Below, in pieces: positions 2,043-57,481 of a stretch of 64,000 bases of DNA. The position numbers and the translations under genes are program-made. The stretch's first letter is position 1, and the number at the start of each line of letters is the position of its first letter. The DNA is from Escherichia coli. GTDB taxonomy: Bacteria > Pseudomonadota > Gammaproteobacteria > Enterobacterales > Enterobacteriaceae. The stretch is from assembly GCF_003334355.1 (NCBI RefSeq), contig NZ_QOWP01000010.1, one strand, 5' to 3'. Under the pieces are notes generated by a model. The model had not been told where the DNA came from. It searched no databases and saw only the letters and a program-made list of their open reading frames with translations.

Positions 2043-2130
2043 TGGCGGAAGCGCAGAGATTCGAACTCTGGAACCCTTTCGGGTCGCCGGTTTTCAAGAC
2101 CGGTGCCTTCAACCGCTCGGCCACACTTCC
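2043..2130 (-). tRNA. serT: tRNA-Ser (anticodon UGA), 88 nt with long variable arm and encoded CCA
   Basis: Reverse complement GGAAGTGTGGCCGAGCGGTTGAAGGCACCGGTCTTGAAAACCGGCGACCCGAAAGGGTTCCAGAGTTCGAATCTCTGCGCTTCCGCCA; anticodon loop CTTGAAA gives anticodon TGA; class II tRNA. Confidence 0.93.
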
Positions 2131-3675: not shown

Positions 3676-5465
3676 GCACTCAGTACGAAACTCAGGGATA
3701 CACCATCAATAATGCCGGACGCCGCCTGGTGGTCGACCCGATTACGCGCATCGAAGGCCACATGCGCTGCGAAGTGAATATTAACGATCAGAATGTGATC
3801 ACCAATGCCGTCTCCTGCGGCACCATGTTTCGCGGGCTGGAGATCATCCTACAAGGGCGCGACCCGCGCGATGCGTGGGCGTTCGTTGAACGTATCTGCG
3901 GCGTCTGTACTGGCGTACACGCCCTGGCTTCGGTTTACGCCATCGAAGATGCTATCGGTATTAAAGTGCCGGACAACGCCAATATCATCCGCAACATTAT
4001 GCTGGCAACGCTCTGGTGCCACGATCATCTGGTGCACTTCTATCAGCTTGCCGGGATGGACTGGATCGATGTGTTAGATGCGCTGAAAGCCGACCCGCGG
4101 AAAACCTCCGAACTGGCGCAAAGTCTCTCCTCTTGGCCGAAATCATCCCCTGGCTATTTCTTCGACGTACAAAACCGCCTGAAAAAATTTGTTGAAGGCG
4201 GGCAGTTGGGGATCTTCCGCAATGGCTACTGGGGGCACCCGCAGTACAAACTGCCGCCAGAAGCTAACCTGATGGGCTTTGCCCACTATCTCGAAGCTCT
4301 CGATTTCCAGCGTGAAATTGTCAAAATCCACGCGGTCTTTGGCGGTAAAAACCCGCATCCAAACTGGATTGTCGGCGGGATGCCTTGCGCCATCAACATT
4401 GACGAAAGCGGCGCGGTCGGGGCAGTCAATATGGAACGCCTGAACCTGGTGCAGTCAATTATCACCCGCACGGCGGACTTCATTAACAACGTGATGATCC
4501 CCGACGCCTTAGCCATCGGTCAGTTCAACAAACCGTGGAGCGAAATCGGCACTGGTCTTTCTGATAAATGCGTTCTCAGCTACGGCGCATTCCCGGATAT
4601 TGCCAACGACTTTGGCGAGAAAAGTCTGCTGATGCCTGGCGGCGCGGTGATTAACGGCGACTTCAACAATGTGCTGCCAGTGGATTTGGTTGATCCGCAG
4701 CAGGTGCAGGAGTTTGTCGACCACGCCTGGTATCGATATCCCAACGATCAGGTCGGGCGTCATCCGTTCGATGGCATCACCGACCCGTGGTACAACCCCG
4801 GCGATGTCAAAGGCAGCGATACCAACATTCAGCAGCTGAATGAACAGGAACGCTACTCGTGGATCAAAGCGCCACGCTGGCGCGGTAACGCGATGGAAGT
4901 GGGGCCGCTGGCGCGCACGTTAATCGCTTATCACAAAGGCGATGCTGCGACCGTTGAGTCGGTCGATCGCATGATGTCGGCGTTGAACCTGCCGCTTTCC
5001 GGTATCCAGTCAACGTTAGGCCGCATTTTGTGCCGCGCGCACGAAGCGCAGTGGGCCGCAGGTAAGTTGCAGTATTTCTTCGACAAGCTGATGACCAACC
5101 TGAAAAACGGCAATCTCGCCACTGCTTCCACGGAAAAATGGGAACCTGCAACCTGGCCGACAGAGTGCCGTGGCGTCGGCTTTACCGAAGCGCCGCGCGG
5201 GGCGTTAGGCCACTGGGCCGCCATTCGCGATGGCAAGATTGATCTCTACCAGTGCGTGGTACCGACCACCTGGAACGCCAGCCCGCGCGATCCCAAAGGG
5301 CAGATTGGCGCTTATGAAGCGGCGCTGATGAACACCAAAATGGCGATCCCCGAGCAACCGCTGGAGATCCTGCGTACTCTGCACAGCTTTGATCCGTGCC
5401 TCGCCTGTTCAACACACGTGCTGGGCGACAACGGTAGCGAGCTGATCTCCGTGCAGGTGCGTTAA
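3672..5465 (+). CDS. hyaB: hydrogenase 1 large subunit [NiFe], 597 aa
   Basis: Full [33 protein letters not shown]... ending ...[24 protein letters not shown] (C-terminal metal-binding motif). Confidence 0.95.
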
Positions 5466-18363: not shown

Positions 18364-19109
18364 CAGTCAGGAACACGTTGCGTTAAAACAGACACAATCT
18401 GGTCATTTAAATCAGCATATTTTTCGGGCAGTACATGCGCAGAAAAGCCCAACCAAAGCTGGCTGCCAGGCGGTGGTTCCACATGTCTTTTATTCCACAG
18501 GGCAACAGGGGCGACGACAGTCTCACCCTCAGGCGTAATCACCATAACGTTATTCTTGTCCGCGCCTGCAAGGCGGGGGTGATCTTGCAGATAATCGGTA
18601 ACGCTACGGCCTGCCTGCCAGGGCAATTGCCCGGCCCCAGAAACCGCACCCAGCAGAGTAATAGTCACCGGACGCTGTACGGTATAGAGCGTATAGTCCC
18701 CGACCAACGGGGGATTGCTGTTCTCATCCACTCGTACAAAATCAGGGTCCAGTTTGACCGGTAAGCGACCAGTGATATTGAGATTGAGTAACTGCTGGCG
18801 CACGGATTTAATCGTTGCCGCCACATCGTCGTCAGCTTCTGCTTCCCAGGAAGCAAGCTGTGCCATGACATGTTGGTAGTCTTTAAGCGCTTTAGCTTTC
18901 GCCGCAGAGTCGGTCAGCAAGGCACCAGGCCACCAGAGGCGATCGCGCAGTTGCGGTTGTGTCACCAACTGGACAACATTTTCCATGGGGCCAACGGAAA
19001 GTGTCTGTTGTTCGCCAGGCAGATAAATAGTCACCGTTCCTTGCGCAAAGGCATGGGGTGTCATTACGTAAAGTACGCTGGCAATGAAATACGACTGTAA
19101 TTTATTCAT
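18363..19109 (-). CDS. gfcC: group 4 capsule periplasmic protein GfcC (YmcB), 248 aa
   Basis: Full [30 protein letters not shown]..., stop overlaps gfcD start. Confidence 0.9.
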
Positions 19110-19750
19110 GGTGCGGGTTTAAGAAACGTCATTTCTACGGGAATAACCCCTGCGCCTAACATTTGCCGACTTTGACGAACCTGGCCAGTAGCCGAATCGA
19201 CCCAGAATGTGTTTTGCCACTGTTTTTCTGGCCGCGTGGAAGTCACCTCTTCCTGCCAGACATTACACAGCACATTACGACCCGCAATATTCAGCGTCTC
19301 TAATCCAGCAAAGGAAAAAGTAGAACTCAGGGTCGCAGAGCGAAAATGGTTGTCTTCACTCCAGAGAATATCGCGCGTCCAGCGGCTGCCATCTTTTATT
19401 GCCAGCGCGTTACGCAGAGGGTCCTGCCCGGAATTTGTCACTTCCAGCAGATTATTATTAAGTTTGACGGTTTTTAAAAGACGTCCATTGTGGGTAACCA
19501 GCATGGCGTTATCCTGGGATAACCATTTGCTTTGTTCTTGTTCTATATATCCCAGTACCACAAAGATTCGTTGCCCTTCATTAAGGCGTAAATACATAGT
19601 GGAATAAGGCAACGCCTGGATCTGCTGATCCGCTACGGTGATATCCTGATTATCGAAAAGGCTGGCGCGAAATGTATCGACCATACTTTGCTGGCTGTGC
19701 GTACATCCCGCAAGAAATAGTGCGAAAATCGATAAAATAAGAGGGCGCAC
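19106..19750 (-). CDS. gfcB: group 4 capsule lipoprotein GfcB (YmcC), 214 aa
   Basis: Full ORF MRPLILSIFALFLAGCTHS... (lipobox LAGC). Confidence 0.9.
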   Translation of the reverse strand: MRPLILSIFALFLAGCTHSQQSMVDTFRASLFDNQDITVADQQIQALPYSTMYLRLNEGQRIFVVLGYIEQEQSKWLSQDNAMLVTHNGRLLKTVKLNNNLLEVTNSGQDPLRNALAIKDGSRWTRDILWSEDNHFRSATLSSTFSFAGLETLNIAGRNVLCNVWQEEVTSTRPEKQWQNTFWVDSATGQVRQSRQMLGAGVIPVEMTFLKPAP

Positions 19751-19856
19751 CTTTAATCCTTGAAAGGTTAATTAAAAAAATGCAAATCTCTAAAGCCCGG
19801 TACGAATATCGCAACCGGGTATCATTTAACTTTAATTTCGACGCGTTAAAGCAGTA

Positions 19857-20165
19857 TTAGCGTGTAGTGGACGTGGTGGTTGAGGTGTTATGAGAACCGC
19901 CATCGCCACTGTCATTTGCTGCAACAACTGCCAACGTCGCCACACCAACAGCCGTTGCCACACCGACAACTGTCGCCGTGCCGACAGCGCCAGCAGCCAC
20001 GCCACCAGTGGTAGTAGCAGCAGTCGTGGTTGCGCCGGTAGTGGTCGTTGTGGTGCCAGTAGTACCCGTCGTTGCATCGGTCCCGTTTGTTGCTTCAGGG
20101 GCAGCAAACGCAGCTGGCGTCGTCAACATGAAGGCCATAAGGATTGCAGAAAGCTTGTGTTTCAT
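19857..20165 (-). CDS. gfcA: Thr-rich small secreted/membrane protein GfcA (YmcD), about 101 aa
   Basis: ORF 19857..20183; MKHKLSAILMAFMLTTPAAFA signal then threonine-rich low-complexity region; start at 20165. Confidence 0.85.
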   Translation of the reverse strand: MKHKLSAILMAFMLTTPAAFAAPEATNGTDATTGTTGTTTTTTGATTTAATTTGGVAAGAVGTATVVGVATAVGVATLAVVAANDSGDGGSHNTSTTTSTTR

Positions 20166-20819: not shown

Positions 20820-21104
20820 ACAAATTCCTTACTGAAAATACTGCGCTGCACTATACGGGGTTAATAAAATAAAGCCAGCGATATTTAAGACCGCCGGACG
20901 GCTAAAATAAAATTTGCTTAATCTCAATTATCATGCGTTAATAGCTGCGTCGGTTTGAAAGACAGACAGCATACAAAGTAGTTTACTAAAGCAGTTCTCA
21001 TTATCAGGCATTATCCCCTTCTTTTGAGTCTCTCTCCTGAACACTAAGTAGTTTCTGTATTAAAGCCCTGTTTGCCGAAAGGCCCAAAATGAAGGAAGTA
21101 AAAT

Positions 21105-21317
21105 ATGTCTAATAAAATGACTGGTTTAGTAAAATGGTTTAACGCAGATAAAGGTTTTGGCTTTATCACTCCTGATGATGGCAGCAAAGACGTTTTCGTC
21201 CATTTCACCGCCATCCAGAGCAATGAATTCCGCACGCTGAACGAAAATCAGAAAGTTGAATTTTCTATTGAGCAGGGGCAACGTGGCCCCGCGGCAGCGA
21301 ACGTTGTTACGCTCTAA
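21105..21317 (+). CDS. cspG: cold shock protein CspG, 70 aa
   Basis: [41 protein letters not shown]..., strong RBS, long AT-rich 5' leader upstream. Confidence 0.92.
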
Positions 21318-21516
21318 GGTTGCCATTATTACTCAACATCTCCATTTCCGCTGTCCATGTTGTCATGGTTCACAGTACCGCACATCGGCATTCGATGTGA
21401 CGGAGCGAAACCCTTTGGGCGCTAAGTGTATTTTTTGTAAATCGACGATGATCACCTTTGATAACGTCGCGCTGCAAATACGCACTGACCATGCGCCGCT
21501 GGATTTCACAAAATAA
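21256..21516 (+). CDS. ymcF: small Cys-rich (CPCC...CIFC zinc-ribbon-like) protein immediately downstream of cspG; true start uncertain, probably downstream of the cspG stop; ymcF assignment tentative
   Basis: Track ORF 21256..21516 ends [57 protein letters not shown]; position downstream of a csp gene matches the described small protein YmcF; no in-frame ATG between the cspG stop and the Cys motifs. Confidence 0.4.
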
Positions 21517-48940: not shown

Positions 48941-50449
<1,509 letters not shown>

Positions 50450-50544
50450 GGGACTTAGCCTGCGGCGGTTTTGTTTGGCTTCAGCAGCGGGTTGCGCTCC
50501 CTTAATGTGCCTCGCCATATAAATTGAATGGTGCAGGGAGCGCG

Positions 50545-50574
50545 CAGGGGGCGGCCAATCGCCGCCGCCCCCTG
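50545..50574. other. GC-rich perfect 11-bp stem hairpin about 100 nt downstream of putP, no T-run
   Basis: cagggggcggc-caatcgcc-gccgccccctg. Confidence 0.3.
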
Positions 50575-50747
50575 CTGTCCCGGCCTTCGGGGAACGCTTC
50601 AGCGATTTTGACGCCACCAACACCCGAGCTGTTATTATGTTCCGGGCAAAAAGTTAGATTTGATAATCGCGGATGGACGAAATTGCTTGATACACCCGCT
50701 TATCAGTTTTACATGGAAGCTCTGATGCATTGAGTCTGGACAGTTTT

Positions 50748-50782
50748 GTCGGCTGGATACGGCGTTTACGCGGCATCCGGCA
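50748..50782. repeat. REP element upstream of efeU
   Basis: gtcggctggatacggcgtttacgcggcatccggca. Confidence 0.45.
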
Positions 50783-50912
50783 AGAACACATGGCTCGTTG
50801 TAAACAATCCCATCTTTGTACCTGGAATAATCGTTTATATCCCCTGGCATTACCTCTCTTTGTTTACATTTCAACATCATTTTATAAACATTCCGCTTGT
50901 ATTTTTCTTTAC

Positions 50913-50931
50913 CGTAATGATAATCGCTATC
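50913..50931 (+). promoter_or_regulatory. Fur-box-like site in the efeU promoter region
   Basis: cgtaatgataatcgctatc matches GATAATGATAATCATTATC at 15/19 positions, about 60 bp upstream of efeU ATG. Confidence 0.45.
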
Positions 50932-50990
50932 ACTGCGATTTACTTTTCTTTGCATAGATTGACTCAGAAAAACGTTTAAGGGTGGGTGGC

Positions 50991-51821
50991 ATGTTTGTTC
51001 CGTTTCTCATTATGTTGCGCGAAGGACTTGAAGCCGCGCTGATTGTCAGTTTGATTGCCAGCTATCTTAAGCGTACCCAGCGAGGCCGATGGATTGGTGT
51101 GATGTGGATTGGCGTGTTGCTTGCCGCTGCGTTGTGCCTGGGCTTGGGTATCTTCATTAACGAAACCACCGGCGAATTTCCGCAAAAAGAACAGGAACTG
51201 TTTGAAGGTATCGTGGCGGTGATCGCCGTGGTGATCCTTACCTGGATGGTTTTCTGGATGCGCAAAGTGTCGCGCAACGTCAAAGTGCAACTGGAACAGG
51301 CAGTCGATAGCGCATTGCAGCGTGGAAATCATCATGGCTGGGCGCTGGTGATGATGGTCTTTTTTGCCGTTGCAAGGGAAGGGCTGGAGTCGGTCTTTTT
51401 CCTGCTGGCGGCATTTCAACAAGATGTCGGGATCTGGCCACCGCTGGGTGCAATGCTCGGTCTTGCTACTGCCGTGGTGCTAGGCTTCCTGCTCTACTGG
51501 GGCGGTATTCGCCTCAATCTTGGTGCATTTTTTAAATGGACCAGCCTGTTTATTCTCTTCGTCGCCGCAGGGCTGGCAGCTGGTGCCATTCGCGCATTTC
51601 ATGAAGCCGGATTGTGGAACCACTTTCAGGAAATCGCCTTCGATATGAGTGCGGTGCTCTCAACTCACTCGCTGTTTGGCACGCTGATGGAAGGGATTTT
51701 TGGCTATCAGGAAGCGCCGAGCGTCAGCGAAGTCGCCGTCTGGTTTATTTATCTCATCCCGGCGCTGGTGGCATTTGCTCTGCCACCACGCGCAGGGGCG
51801 ACAGCGTCTCGCTCCGCGTAA
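50991..51821 (+). CDS. efeU: ferrous iron permease EfeU (FTR1/OFeT family; REGLE motifs), 276 aa, intact
   Basis: ORF 50982..51821; MFVPFLIMLREGLEAALIVSLIASYLKRTQ from ATG 50991; uninterrupted reading frame with two REGLE motifs. Confidence 0.9.
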   Translation: MFVPFLIMLREGLEAALIVSLIASYLKRTQRGRWIGVMWIGVLLAAALCLGLGIFINETTGEFPQKEQELFEGIVAVIAVVILTWMVFWMRKVSRNVKVQLEQAVDSALQRGNHHGWALVMMVFFAVAREGLESVFFLLAAFQQDVGIWPPLGAMLGLATAVVLGFLLYWGGIRLNLGAFFKWTSLFILFVAAGLAAGAIRAFHEAGLWNHFQEIAFDMSAVLSTHSLFGTLMEGIFGYQEAPSVSEVAVWFIYLIPALVAFALPPRAGATASRSA

Positions 51822-51878
51822 CAAATACGACGCAAACTCTTGCTTAGTTACAACATACTTTAAAGGGATAGTCTCGTC

Positions 51879-53006
51879 ATGACCATTAACTTCCGCCGTA
51901 ACGCATTGCAGTTGAGCGTGGCTGCGCTGTTTTCTTCTGCTTTTATGGCTAACGCCGCTGATGTGCCGCAGGTCAAAGTGACCGTGACGGATAAGCAGTG
52001 CGAACCGATGACCATTACGGTTAACGCCGGGAAAACACAGTTCATTATTCAGAACCACAGCCAGAAGGCGCTGGAGTGGGAGATCCTCAAAGGCGTGATG
52101 GTGGTGGAAGAGCGGGAAAATATCGCCCCTGGCTTTAGCCAGAAAATGACGGCGAATTTACAGCCTGGCGAATACGATATGACCTGCGGTCTGCTGACTA
52201 ACCCGAAAGGGAAGTTGATCGTCAAAGGTGAGGCAACGGCGGATGCGGCGCAAAGTGATGCGCTGTTAAGTCTTGGTGGTGCAATTACTGCATATAAAGC
52301 GTATGTCATGGCGGAAACCACGCAGCTGGTGACCGACACCAAAGCCTTTACCGACGCGATTAAAGCAGGCGATATCGAAAAAGCGAAAGCACTGTATGCA
52401 CCGACGCGCCAGCACTATGAGCGTATTGAACCGATTGCTGAACTGTTCTCCGATCTGGATGGCAGCATTGACGCCCGTGAAGATGATTACGAGCAAAAAG
52501 CCGCCGACCCAAAATTCACTGGTTTCCACCGTCTGGAAAAAGCATTGTTTGGCGACAACACCACCAAAGGGATGGATCAGTACGCTGAGCAGCTTTATAC
52601 CGATGTGGTCGATTTGCAAAAACGCATCAGTGAACTGGCTTTCCCACCTTCAAAAGTGGTCGGCGGCGCAGCCGGACTGATTGAGGAAGTGGCAGCCAGC
52701 AAAATTAGCGGTGAAGAAGATCGCTACAGCCACACCGATCTGTGGGATTTCCAGGCTAACGTTGAAGGCTCGCAGAAAATTGTCGATTTGCTGCGTCCAC
52801 AACTGCAAAAAGCCAACCCGGAACTGCTGGCAAAAGTCGATGCCAACTTTAAAAAGGTCGATACCATTCTGGCGAAATACCGTACTAAAGACGGTTTTGA
52901 AACCTACGACAAATTGACCGATGCCGACCGGAAGGCACTGAAAGGACCGATTACTGCGCTGGCGGAAGATCTGGCGCAACTTCGCGGTGTGCTGGGACTG
53001 GATTAA
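51879..53006 (+). CDS. efeO: periplasmic iron-binding protein EfeO (cupredoxin + M75 peptidase-like domains), 375 aa
   Basis: Full [55 protein letters not shown]. Confidence 0.93.
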
Positions 53007-53011
53007 GCGTT

Positions 53012-54283
53012 ATGCAGTATAAAGATGAAAACGGCGTGAATGAACCGTCACGCCGACGTTTACTGAAAGTGATAGGTGCACTGGCGCTGGCGGGAAGTTG
53101 TCCGGTCGCTCATGCACAAAAAACGCAAAGTGCGCCGGGTACGCTTTCACCGGATGCTCGCAATGAGAAACAGCCGTTTTATGGTGAGCATCAGGCAGGG
53201 ATCCTGACGCCACAACAGGCCGCAATGATGCTGGTGGCGTTTGATGTGCTTGCCAGCGATAAAGCCGATCTTGAGCGGTTGTTTCGCTTGTTGACTCAGC
53301 GTTTTGCTTTTCTGACTCAGGGCGGAGCAGCACCAGAAACGCCAAATCCGCGCCTGCCACCACTCGATTCCGGCATTCTTGGCGGCTACATTGCGCCCGA
53401 TAATCTCACCATCACGTTATCGGTGGGTCACTCATTGTTTGATGAGCGCTTTGGCCTTGCGCCACAGATGCCAAAAAAGCTGCAGAAGATGACGCGTTTC
53501 CCCAACGACTCGCTGGATGCGGCGTTATGTCATGGTGATGTGTTGCTACAGATTTGCGCCAACACCCAGGACACGGTTATCCATGCGCTGCGCGATATCA
53601 TCAAACACACGCCGGATTTGCTCAGTGTGCGCTGGAAGCGGGAAGGGTTTATTTCCGATCACGCGGCGCGTAGTAAAGGCAAAGAGACGCCGATTAATTT
53701 GCTGGGTTTCAAAGACGGCACTGCCAATCCCGATAGCCAGAATGATAAGTTGATGCAAAAAGTGGTGTGGGTAACGGCAGATCAGCAGGAGCCTGCGTGG
53801 ACAATCGGTGGCAGCTATCAGGCAGTACGCTTGATTCAGTTTCGAGTGGAATTTTGGGACAGAACGCCGCTGAAAGAACAGCAGACGATTTTTGGCCGTG
53901 ATAAGCAAACCGGTGCGCCGCTGGGAATGCAGCATGAGCATGATGTGCCTGATTACGCCAGCGACCCGGAAGGGAAGGTGATCGCGCTGGACAGCCATAT
54001 CCGGCTGGCGAATCCCCGCACGGCGGAGAGTGAGTCCAGCCTGATGCTGCGTCGTGGCTACAGTTATTCACTGGGCGTCACCAACTCCGGGCAACTGGAT
54101 ATGGGGTTGCTGTTTGTCTGCTACCAACACGATCTGGAAAAAGGCTTCCTGACAGTACAAAAAAGGCTCAATGGCGAAGCGCTGGAGGAATACGTTAAAC
54201 CTATCGGCGGCGGTTATTTTTTTGCGCTGCCGGGGGTGAAGGACGCGAACGATTATTTTGGAAGCGCGTTATTGCGGGTTTAA
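53012..54283 (+). CDS. efeB: Dyp-type haem peroxidase / deferrochelatase EfeB (Tat signal RRRLLK), 423 aa
   Basis: Full [39 protein letters not shown]... Confidence 0.93.
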
Positions 54284-54290
54284 TGTTTTT

Positions 54291-54427
54291 AGGCGGATAA
54301 GGCATTTGTGCGCAGATGCCTGATGCGACGCTTGCGCGTCTTATCATGCCTACAATCAGTGCGGGTTTGGTAGGCTGGATAAGGCGTTCACGCCGCATCC
54401 GGCGATCGTGCACTGATGCCTGATGCA
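54291..54427. repeat. BIME cluster (REP palindromes) between efeB and phoH
   Basis: aggcggataaggcatttgtgcgcagatgcctgatgcgacgcttgcgcgtcttatcatgcctac; gtaggctggataaggcgttcacgccgcatccggc. Confidence 0.5.
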
Positions 54428-54460
54428 AATCCTGCTGAAAGCACACAGCTTTTTTCATCA

Positions 54461-54479
54461 CTGTCATCACTCTGTCATC
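54461..54479 (+). promoter_or_regulatory. Pho box (PhoB binding site) of the phoH promoter
   Basis: CTGTCAT-CACT-CTGTCAT: two 7-bp direct repeats with 4-bp spacer, about 150 bp upstream of phoH ATG. Confidence 0.6.
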
Positions 54480-54627
54480 TTTCCAGTAGAAACTAATGTC
54501 ACTGAAATGGTGTTTTATAGTTAAATATAAGTAAATATATTGTTGCAATAAATGCGAGATCTGTTGTACTTATTAAGTAGCAGCGGAAGTTCCCGGCAGT
54601 GATAGTCAGTCACTATGGAGATCGCGG

Positions 54628-55692
54628 ATGGTAACGTCCTGTACTGGACATGTTTTAGATAATCAACGCGCCACCACTCGCGGAGTTTTCTCCTCCGGTA
54701 GTCATCTCGTCACTTTGCATTTTCAACCTCATCCTTTCTTTTCATGTGTTACCGACGCCGTAAACGGTGCGCGTAGCCGTTTTTCGGCATTTTATCCAAA
54801 AGCAAACTATGGCTTACAAGGAAGCCAACCCTCTGATGTTCGTGCGCATAATCGCGCTGCCAACGGCGCGTGTGATGAATACAAACAACTCAAGGTGCTC
54901 TCCATGGGAAGACAAAAAGCAGTGATCAAAGCTCGTCGCGAGGCAAAACGTGTGCTGAGACGGGATTCGCGCAGCCATAAGCAGCGTGAAGAAGAATCGG
55001 TCACCTCGCTTGTGCAGATGGGCGGCGTAGAAGCCATTGGTATGGCCCGCGACAGTCGCGATACTTCGCCCATCCTCGCGCGAAATGAAGCGCAATTGCA
55101 CTATCTGAAGGCTATTGAGAGTAAGCAGCTGATATTCGCCACGGGCGAAGCCGGGTGCGGAAAAACCTGGATCAGCGCAGCAAAAGCGGCAGAGGCCCTG
55201 ATACATAAGGATGTCGACAGGATTATCGTCACCCGTCCAGTTCTGCAAGCCGATGAAGATCTTGGCTTCTTACCTGGAGATATCGCAGAAAAGTTTGCTC
55301 CCTATTTTCGCCCGGTCTACGACGTGCTGGTCCGGCGCTTAGGGGCTTCCTTTATGCAGTACTGCCTGCGACCGGAAATAGGGAAGGTGGAAATTGCGCC
55401 GTTCGCCTATATGCGTGGACGTACCTTTGAAAATGCAGTCGTCATTCTTGACGAGGCGCAGAATGTGACTGCCGCGCAAATGAAAATGTTTTTAACCCGC
55501 CTCGGGGAGAACGTGACGGTTATCGTCAACGGTGATATCACGCAATGCGATTTGCCTCGCGGCGTGTGCTCCGGATTAAGTGACGCGCTGGAACGTTTCG
55601 AAGAAGATGAAATGGTTGGGATCGTCCGGTTCGGTAAAGAGGACTGCGTACGTTCGGCACTTTGCCAACGTACGCTGCATGCCTACAGTTAA
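54628..55692 (+). CDS. phoH: phosphate-starvation-inducible ATPase PhoH (Walker A GEAGCGKT), 354 aa
   Basis: Full ORF MVTSCTGHVLDNQRATTRGVFSSGSHLVTLHF... Confidence 0.9.
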   Translation: MVTSCTGHVLDNQRATTRGVFSSGSHLVTLHFQPHPFFSCVTDAVNGARSRFSAFYPKANYGLQGSQPSDVRAHNRAANGACDEYKQLKVLSMGRQKAVIKARREAKRVLRRDSRSHKQREEESVTSLVQMGGVEAIGMARDSRDTSPILARNEAQLHYLKAIESKQLIFATGEAGCGKTWISAAKAAEALIHKDVDRIIVTRPVLQADEDLGFLPGDIAEKFAPYFRPVYDVLVRRLGASFMQYCLRPEIGKVEIAPFAYMRGRTFENAVVILDEAQNVTAAQMKMFLTRLGENVTVIVNGDITQCDLPRGVCSGLSDALERFEEDEMVGIVRFGKEDCVRSALCQRTLHAYS

Positions 55693-56156: not shown

Positions 56157-57481
56157 TTAACCTCTCAGAATCCCGCGATCGGGACTTACCCAACGGGTGC
56201 GTTGCTTTTTAGGCATCAACATGACTCGTGTAAATGATACCAATGTCGTTGCCAGGCTCAGCATCCAGAAAATAACCGGGAACCAAATAATCCAGAAAAG
56301 CGATGAAGTCAGATTATGCTCATAGCGATTCTCGATCATCAGGCTGACAATAAATTGCAGTAAACATAACGTACACAATAATATTCCGGCAGTATGTGTC
56401 GCAGCGATATGTGTCAATTCAATATTTAACGGTACACCGGCAAGTTGGACTGCGTAAATAATGAAACCGACCAGGCAGGTGAAGGCCCATATTGTCGTCA
56501 GGCAGTATTCAAAAAACAGCGGCCACATTCGAAAGTTTTCTTTGCGCCACAACCTTGTCATATTTTTGAGGAATACTTCTGCACCGCCCTGAGCCCAGCG
56601 CAGGCGCTGTTTCCACAGCCCTTTTAACGTTTCAGGCATTAATATCCAGCACAGTGCCCGTGGCTCGTAAAAATCGTCCACTGATTCAACTGCAGCTTCC
56701 AGCTAATATCAATATCTTCGGTGATCATATCGTCACTCCAGTAACCCACTTCTGCCAGGGCGCTGCGACGAAATGCGGCAATAACACCGGAAACGGTAAA
56801 TACGTTTCCATAGATACGCTGGGTTCGCTTGATCAAACCAATAATTGAGGAATACTCGCCAACCTGAATTTTACCCACCAGGGTAGAACGTGTTCGAATA
56901 CGAGGATTACCGGTTACGGCACCCACACGCGGGTTGTACAACATCGGTTCCACAATATATGCCGCCGCATCGCGGTCTAATAACGCATCGCCATCAATGC
57001 ACACCAGATATTCACTTTTCGCCGCGGCAGCTCCGGTTTTAAGCGCAATGGCTTTCCCCTGGTTTTGCGCCAGATGAATGACCCGCAAATGGGGAATTTG
57101 TGCAGCCATGCGATCCAGGATGGCACGGGTTTTATCTGTTGAACCGTCATTTACGGCAATAACTTCAATGTTCTCATAACGCTGTGCTAAAGCGGCGTGT
57201 ATGGTTTCCTCAACGTTTTTCTCCTCATTAAAACAGGGAATGATAATGGAGATAGACGGATTATCTTTCAACTGGGGAGCTGGTGCGTTTTCTCCCCACG
57301 GCCAGTGGCGTTCACGATAGACCCAGAAATAGACGCCGCCAACAATCCACATAATGGACATAAAAAACGGCCAGAAGAAAACGAACCTCATCATCAGTTC
57401 ACCAGAGTGAAAGTACGCTACGCATAGGGGTATGCATAACACCAGACATAATATAAAAAACGATACGATGCGATTAATCAT
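56157..57481 (-). pseudogene. pgaC: poly-beta-1,6-N-acetylglucosamine synthase PgaC (GT2), reading frame split by a 1-nt loss in a homopolymer (plus-strand A5 at 56669-56673): frameshifted allele or sequencing error
   Basis: Track gives two ORFs in different frames: 56639..57481 (N-terminal 280 aa ...[13 protein letters not shown] then out of frame) and 56157..56681 (C-terminal, ..[32 protein letters not shown]); the intact protein reads ...[13 protein letters not shown]... Confidence 0.8.

Follow-up and report, generated by a model that had tools for sequence, protein, structure and literature searches.

In the literature, Escherichia coli K-12 MG1655 is described as having a non-functional EfeUOB transporter because of a frameshift in efeU. 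The locus studied here raises the question of whether another strain of the species holds this gene intact and, if so, how ordinary that state is. We analysed a window of 64,000 nucleotides (the whole stretch of DNA under study) from an E. coli contig. Its first-pass annotation had read efeU as uninterrupted over 276 codons with both REGLE motifs, followed by intact efeO and efeB, and had considered the system likely functional. With high confidence, we read the locus as efeUOB (ycdNOB) in its ordinary wild-type form, carried by an E. coli that resembles phylogroup A and is near strains PSS-12 and ATCC 8739.

Re-translation of efeU bore out the first of these claims. The gene consists of one open frame on the plus strand, 831 nt long, beginning with ATG and ending with TAA; a frameshift or an internal stop was looked for in it and is absent. 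A GTG at 50982 lies in frame with efeU and would add three residues if used as a start; in the RefSeq annotation of near-identical strains, it is the ATG, not this GTG, that starts the gene. The REGLE motifs are placed at residues 10-14 and 129-133 of the protein. With the curated NCBIfam equivalog for EfeU, NF041756, the protein reaches 331.2 bits (cut-off 255); its match to TIGR00145 covers residues 1-273 with 351.7 bits (cut-off 303.8).

Table 1 Features of the efeU locus and its surroundings, in window coordinates.
Feature	Position	Strand	Description
Conserved efeU regulatory region	50863-50990	+	~130 bp, from a six-strain alignment
Candidate sigma-70 promoter	50897-50924	+	TTGTAT, 16-nt spacer, GATAAT; 8/12 in a hexamer scan
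Fur box	50913-50931	+	CGTAATGATAATCGCTATC, 15/19 against the consensus GATAATGATAATCATTATC
Candidate CpxR-like tandem pentamer	50939-50953	-	GCAAAgaaaaGTAAA, 9/10 against GTAAA-N5-GTAAA; between Fur box and start codon
efeU	50991-51821	+	Ftr1-type iron permease, full length, 276 aa
K-12 frameshift site	51095-51096	+	GG here, one G lost in K-12; codon 36
efeO	51879-53006	+	Periplasmic cupredoxin and M75-domain protein, 375 aa, N-terminal signal-like sequence
efeB	53012-54283	+	DyP-type haem peroxidase/deferrochelatase, 423 aa
REP/BIME-like imperfect palindromes	54290-54430	.	3' of the efeB stop codon
pgaC	56157-57481	-	Poly-beta-1,6-GlcNAc synthase, 1-bp deletion at 56668

A Kyte-Doolittle hydropathy profile of EfeU, with a threshold of 1.6, delimits six segments: 5-23, 38-56, 70-88, 152-170, 185-203 and 248-266. 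The first REGLE motif lies inside segment 5-23, whereas charged residues keep the stretch around the second (approximately 118-140) under the threshold. By this crude method, six clear membrane segments and the second REGLE stretch fit the expectation of a polytopic protein with about seven segments. A sequence search for relatives of EfeU with a solved structure detected none.

The two genes that follow are also whole, as had been claimed. All three genes lie on the same strand, with gaps of 57 nt between efeU and efeO and of 5 nt between efeO and efeB, and both downstream frames are uninterrupted. Their products score well over the cut-offs of the corresponding NCBIfam equivalogs: 480.5 bits for EfeO with NF041757 (cut-off 270) and 617.7 bits for EfeB with TIGR01412 (cut-off 428). 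EfeO carries the HxxE motif of the M75 domain as HRLE at residue 217, and its residues 27-375 align with the solved EfeO chain 7wgu_A, the sole difference being N352K. In EfeB, a hydrophobic stretch comes after a twin-arginine motif (SRRRLL, residue 13), and the whole protein is 100% identical to EfeB of K-12.

The imperfect palindromes behind efeB, which we take to be REP elements from general knowledge of such sequences in E. coli, probably mark where the operon ends on its 3' side; a canonical intrinsic terminator was looked for after efeB in 54290-54430 and is absent. Terminator-like matches within the operon (12, against 6.4 ± 3.1 expected), one of them lying over the Fur box at 50922-50940, were judged to be chance occurrences. 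An Rfam scan of 50400-54700 returned no RNA family. The stretch 54290-54481 holds these palindromes and, past them and ahead of phoH, a tandem Pho-box-like sequence, CTGTCATCACTCTGTCATC (~54463-54481). From 54628, phoH has an open frame of 354 aa, the length of the RefSeq product in strain Sakai, while the product annotated in PSS-12 has 262 aa. On the minus strand, 55494-55687 matches the Rfam family Ysr251 with 189 bits against a gathering score of 100; the match runs antisense to phoH at its 3' end.

As the reference for the lesion we used K-12 MG1655, whose efeU is marked in RefSeq as 'frameshifted' and as a pseudogene. This flag and our alignment agree with the earlier statement that the K-12 gene is frameshifted. 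The alignment places the loss of a single G at the site given in Table 1, where GGT of the window is reduced to GT; the window thus has an extra G, and its allele is not that of K-12. The K-12 product reads MFVPFLIMLREGLEAALIVSLIASYLKRTQRGRWIV (MFVP...RGRWIV) and then meets a stop, so that the loss of one G leaves an EfeU of 36 residues. When the G is put back, the K-12 gene encodes a protein identical to that of the window. The second and last difference within efeU is a synonymous A/G at 51440.

Over the operon as a whole, the window and K-12 differ at 4 of 3293 nt, and their EfeO proteins at residue 352 only. That efeU is intact in a sequence otherwise so close to K-12 makes the K-12 mutation look recent and specific to its lineage. 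Upstream of the gene, nine further differences fall within 50794-50911. Nine in a stretch of some 120 bp, set against four in a 3.3-kb operon, form a cluster, which may reflect a recombination boundary close to the promoter of efeU.

How common is each allele? Our survey set consisted of 5426 complete E. coli genomes, 5418 of which contain a match to efeU; among the matches listed, efeU is annotated under every one. The K-12 deletion, sought as an exact 60-mer, occurs in 368 of the 5426 genomes (6.8%). Among 60 of its carriers listed, all the recognisable names are those of K-12 derivatives or laboratory strains (for example MG1655, DH5alpha, C600, J53 and DH1). The window's own 61-mer at the lesion site is found exactly in 3638 genomes, O157:H7 included. 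By subtraction, about 1390 further genomes hold neither the window 61-mer nor the exact K-12 match. They include Nissle 1917, which aligns with the window 61-mer at 98.4% identity and 108 bits, against 106 bits for the gapped match of K-12. In a sample of 60 matches spread across the ranking, only four were one base shorter than the query they covered: strain 9FA, which also has the exact K-12 allele, one strain labelled as laboratory-developed, and two without an informative source.

An intact efeU is therefore the majority state and the norm of the species, with K-12 as the exception. Both the intact gene in E. coli and the K-12 defect are already known (Grosse 2006; Cao 2007); our addition is quantitative, namely the frequency of the K-12 lesion given above. 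K-12 is an atypical reference at the efeU locus, and this matters mainly for correct annotation.

The comparison can be extended to O157:H7 and Nissle 1917, both of which are reported to have a working transporter (Grosse 2006 and Cao 2007, as cited in later work). EfeU of O157:H7 strains Sakai and PV15-279 is identical to that of the window at all 276 positions; the order efeU-efeO-efeB is also the same, as are the Fur box and the regulatory region of 130 bp. Two residues differ in EfeO and five in EfeB. Nissle 1917 has the same operon, with a full-length EfeU of 276 aa and both REGLE motifs; compared to the window, this EfeU shows three amino acid differences (M8I, A263V and A276M), and the operon as a whole shows 107 nucleotide differences.

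The spacer between putP and efeU is variable among strains. The window and K-12 have a spacer of 541-542 bp, Nissle 1917 one of 219 bp (3707-3925 of the compared locus L004). In O157:H7, contrary to the window, it holds an extra hypothetical gene of 1344 bp on the opposite strand (1402-2745 of the compared locus L003). The variable part spans 50450-50862 of the window. A perfect 12-bp GC-rich inverted repeat is also present in the window's spacer (50544-50575).

We aligned this upstream region for six strains: the window, K-12, 214-4, O157:H7, Nissle 1917 and PSS-12. Strains with unlike spacers can be aligned only from about TTTACAT, some 130 bp before the start codon, to the ATG, and the columns in between are nearly invariant. 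Of the nine differences from K-12, all shared with 214-4 and PSS-12, only three lie inside this conserved region (50871, 50901 and 50911) and none inside the Fur box.

A Fur-like box upstream of efeU had been proposed earlier, and it stands as both the best match in the 64 kb and a conserved one. It is the sole sequence of the window to match the consensus at 15 or more of 19 positions; in dinucleotide shuffles, such matches arise by chance about 0.07 times per window, and when the 541-bp intergenic region alone is shuffled, one turns up in 0.6% of cases. The box is the same in the window, K-12, O157:H7 and Nissle 1917, and invariant in five of the six aligned strains, PSS-12 having a T-to-C change at box position 3. 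Fur iModulons include both efeU and efeO, and EfeUOB is called Fur-regulated in a review. The efeU promoter is probably repressed by Fur through the predicted box.

A plausible promoter candidate is the TTGTAT/GATAAT pair of Table 1, picked up by a hexamer scan; a stricter scan for sigma-70 promoters returned none in front of efeU. The candidate -10 hexamer GATAAT sits within the Fur box, at which Fe2+-Fur would repress transcription. Further down, the pentamer pair resembling a CpxR site stays only a candidate, given that the count of such matches with at most one mismatch across the window (6, against 3.85 ± 2.0 expected) is not above chance. The gene efeU is listed under negative regulation by CpxR, which would repress transcription at higher pH. 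The 96-nt leader of efeU folds at -14 kcal/mol, which is no improvement on shuffled sequence (z = 0.52).

In the mechanism that we propose, EfeU would serve as an Ftr1-type inner-membrane iron permease with both of its REGLE motifs in hydrophobic segments, EfeO as a periplasmic iron-binding protein of the cupredoxin/M75 type, and EfeB as a haem peroxidase of the DyP type, presumably exported through the Tat pathway. Published work on the same proteins states that the three jointly import ferrous iron at low pH. By analogy, Fe2+ may be oxidised in the periplasm and the resulting Fe3+ then handed to EfeU, a model that comes from the B. subtilis system.

The window's system has in common with yeast Ftr1p/Fet3p and with B. 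subtilis EfeUOB a permease of the Ftr1 type whose REXXE motifs are paired. According to a review, the coupling of Fe2+ oxidation to Fe3+ permeation is a second shared trait. The oxidising partner in the window is, however, a DyP peroxidase together with a cupredoxin/M75 protein, and not a multicopper oxidase.

EfeUOB (YcdNOB) of O157:H7 is reported as a functional low-pH Fe2+ transporter (Cao et al. 2007, as cited in later work). The identity of the window's EfeU to the protein of this serotype makes the earlier judgement of a likely functional system a sound one, and expression and transport activity in the present strain may be presumed on the same comparative grounds. The strain is predicted to own an acid-inducible, Fur-repressed route of Fe2+ uptake that K-12 lacks.

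It is possible in principle that the frames are open and yet the system is inactive in this strain, for example through the N352K change in EfeO or through altered regulation; the chance of this seems to us very slim. N352K results from AAT to AAG, with the G at 52934, and its exact 61-mer occurs in none of the 5426 complete genomes, which lends the idea some substance. The solved distant homologs 7q1g and 3at7 nevertheless have K in the same column, which lies outside the HxxE motif, and on account of these homologs the substitution is probably harmless. As for regulation, the nine upstream differences from K-12 might count in favour of such a change; they are nonetheless shared with other strains, lie for the most part upstream of the conserved 130 bp, and leave the Fur box as it is in K-12, O157:H7 and Nissle 1917. 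Moreover, characterised alleles encode the same EfeU and EfeB proteins.

That the extra G is an error of sequencing or assembly, or that the strain is a K-12 derivative with a repaired efeU, appears extremely improbable. The near-identity of the operon to that of K-12 would suit a repaired derivative, and the assembly does contain one suspicious homopolymer indel, in pgaC. The GG state is, however, no long homopolymer, and it is exactly common to the 3638 genomes counted above. In addition, the closest strains to the window outside the operon are PSS-12 and ATCC 8739, with 99.9-100% identity over 20 kb, compared with 99.1% for K-12 over a 1.2-kb stretch in which the upstream differences are clustered. 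We reject a repaired K-12 origin on this closeness of the flanking sequence to PSS-12 and ATCC 8739.

Finally, the probability is close to nil that the real feature is a gene on the opposite strand and the efeU frame has no product of note: antisense ORFs of 148 and 73 aa do overlap efeU but lack family support, while the plus-strand frame reaches 331-352 bits with the EfeU models and lies at a match that nearly all the genomes surveyed contain, annotated as efeU wherever listed.

The window has a few changes private to this lineage. The synonymous variant at 51440 has no exact counterpart in the 5426 genomes, the best match being 99.9% identical. In pgaC, a run of six T is one base shorter (T5), which leaves two ORFs, of 280 and 174 aa, in place of the 441-aa synthase; the QRLRW motif falls after the frameshift. 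The 61-mer with this deletion likewise has no exact match among the 5426 complete E. coli genomes. The deletion, the most notable by-product of the analysis, has two possible readings: a real loss, private to this lineage, of the ability to make the biofilm polysaccharide PGA, or a sequencing error in the homopolymer. Since the window with N352K also has the private pgaC frameshift, the lineage or its assembly carries unique lesions, none of them in efeU. We consider it very unlikely that N352K, the change at 51440 and the pgaC frameshift are together the sign of unusual selection on this strain or of a relaxed constraint. If they were, N352K could subtly alter how EfeO hands on iron, and the loss of PgaC could abolish the PGA polysaccharide. 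Nothing in the evidence points to a new kind of system.

Elsewhere, the window departs from its nearest relative PSS-12 in three places, at ~15866, ~18800-20020 and 33758, which concern the gfcA region, gfcE and yccE. In the gfcA region, the window is without the IS3 copy of about 1.25 kb present in PSS-12; gfcE has a C in the window against a stop-making T in PSS-12; and the yccE pseudogene has a run of seven A (A7) against six (A6). An IS3 end apparently lies at the right edge of the window, from ~63910. Rfam matches outside the operon include a tRNA at 2046-2130 (minus strand), tRNA-Ser by position; a cspA-type thermoregulator leader at 20949-21371 (plus strand), which covers cspG; naRNA4 at 32054-32132 (minus strand); and ES036 at 38009-38051 (minus strand).
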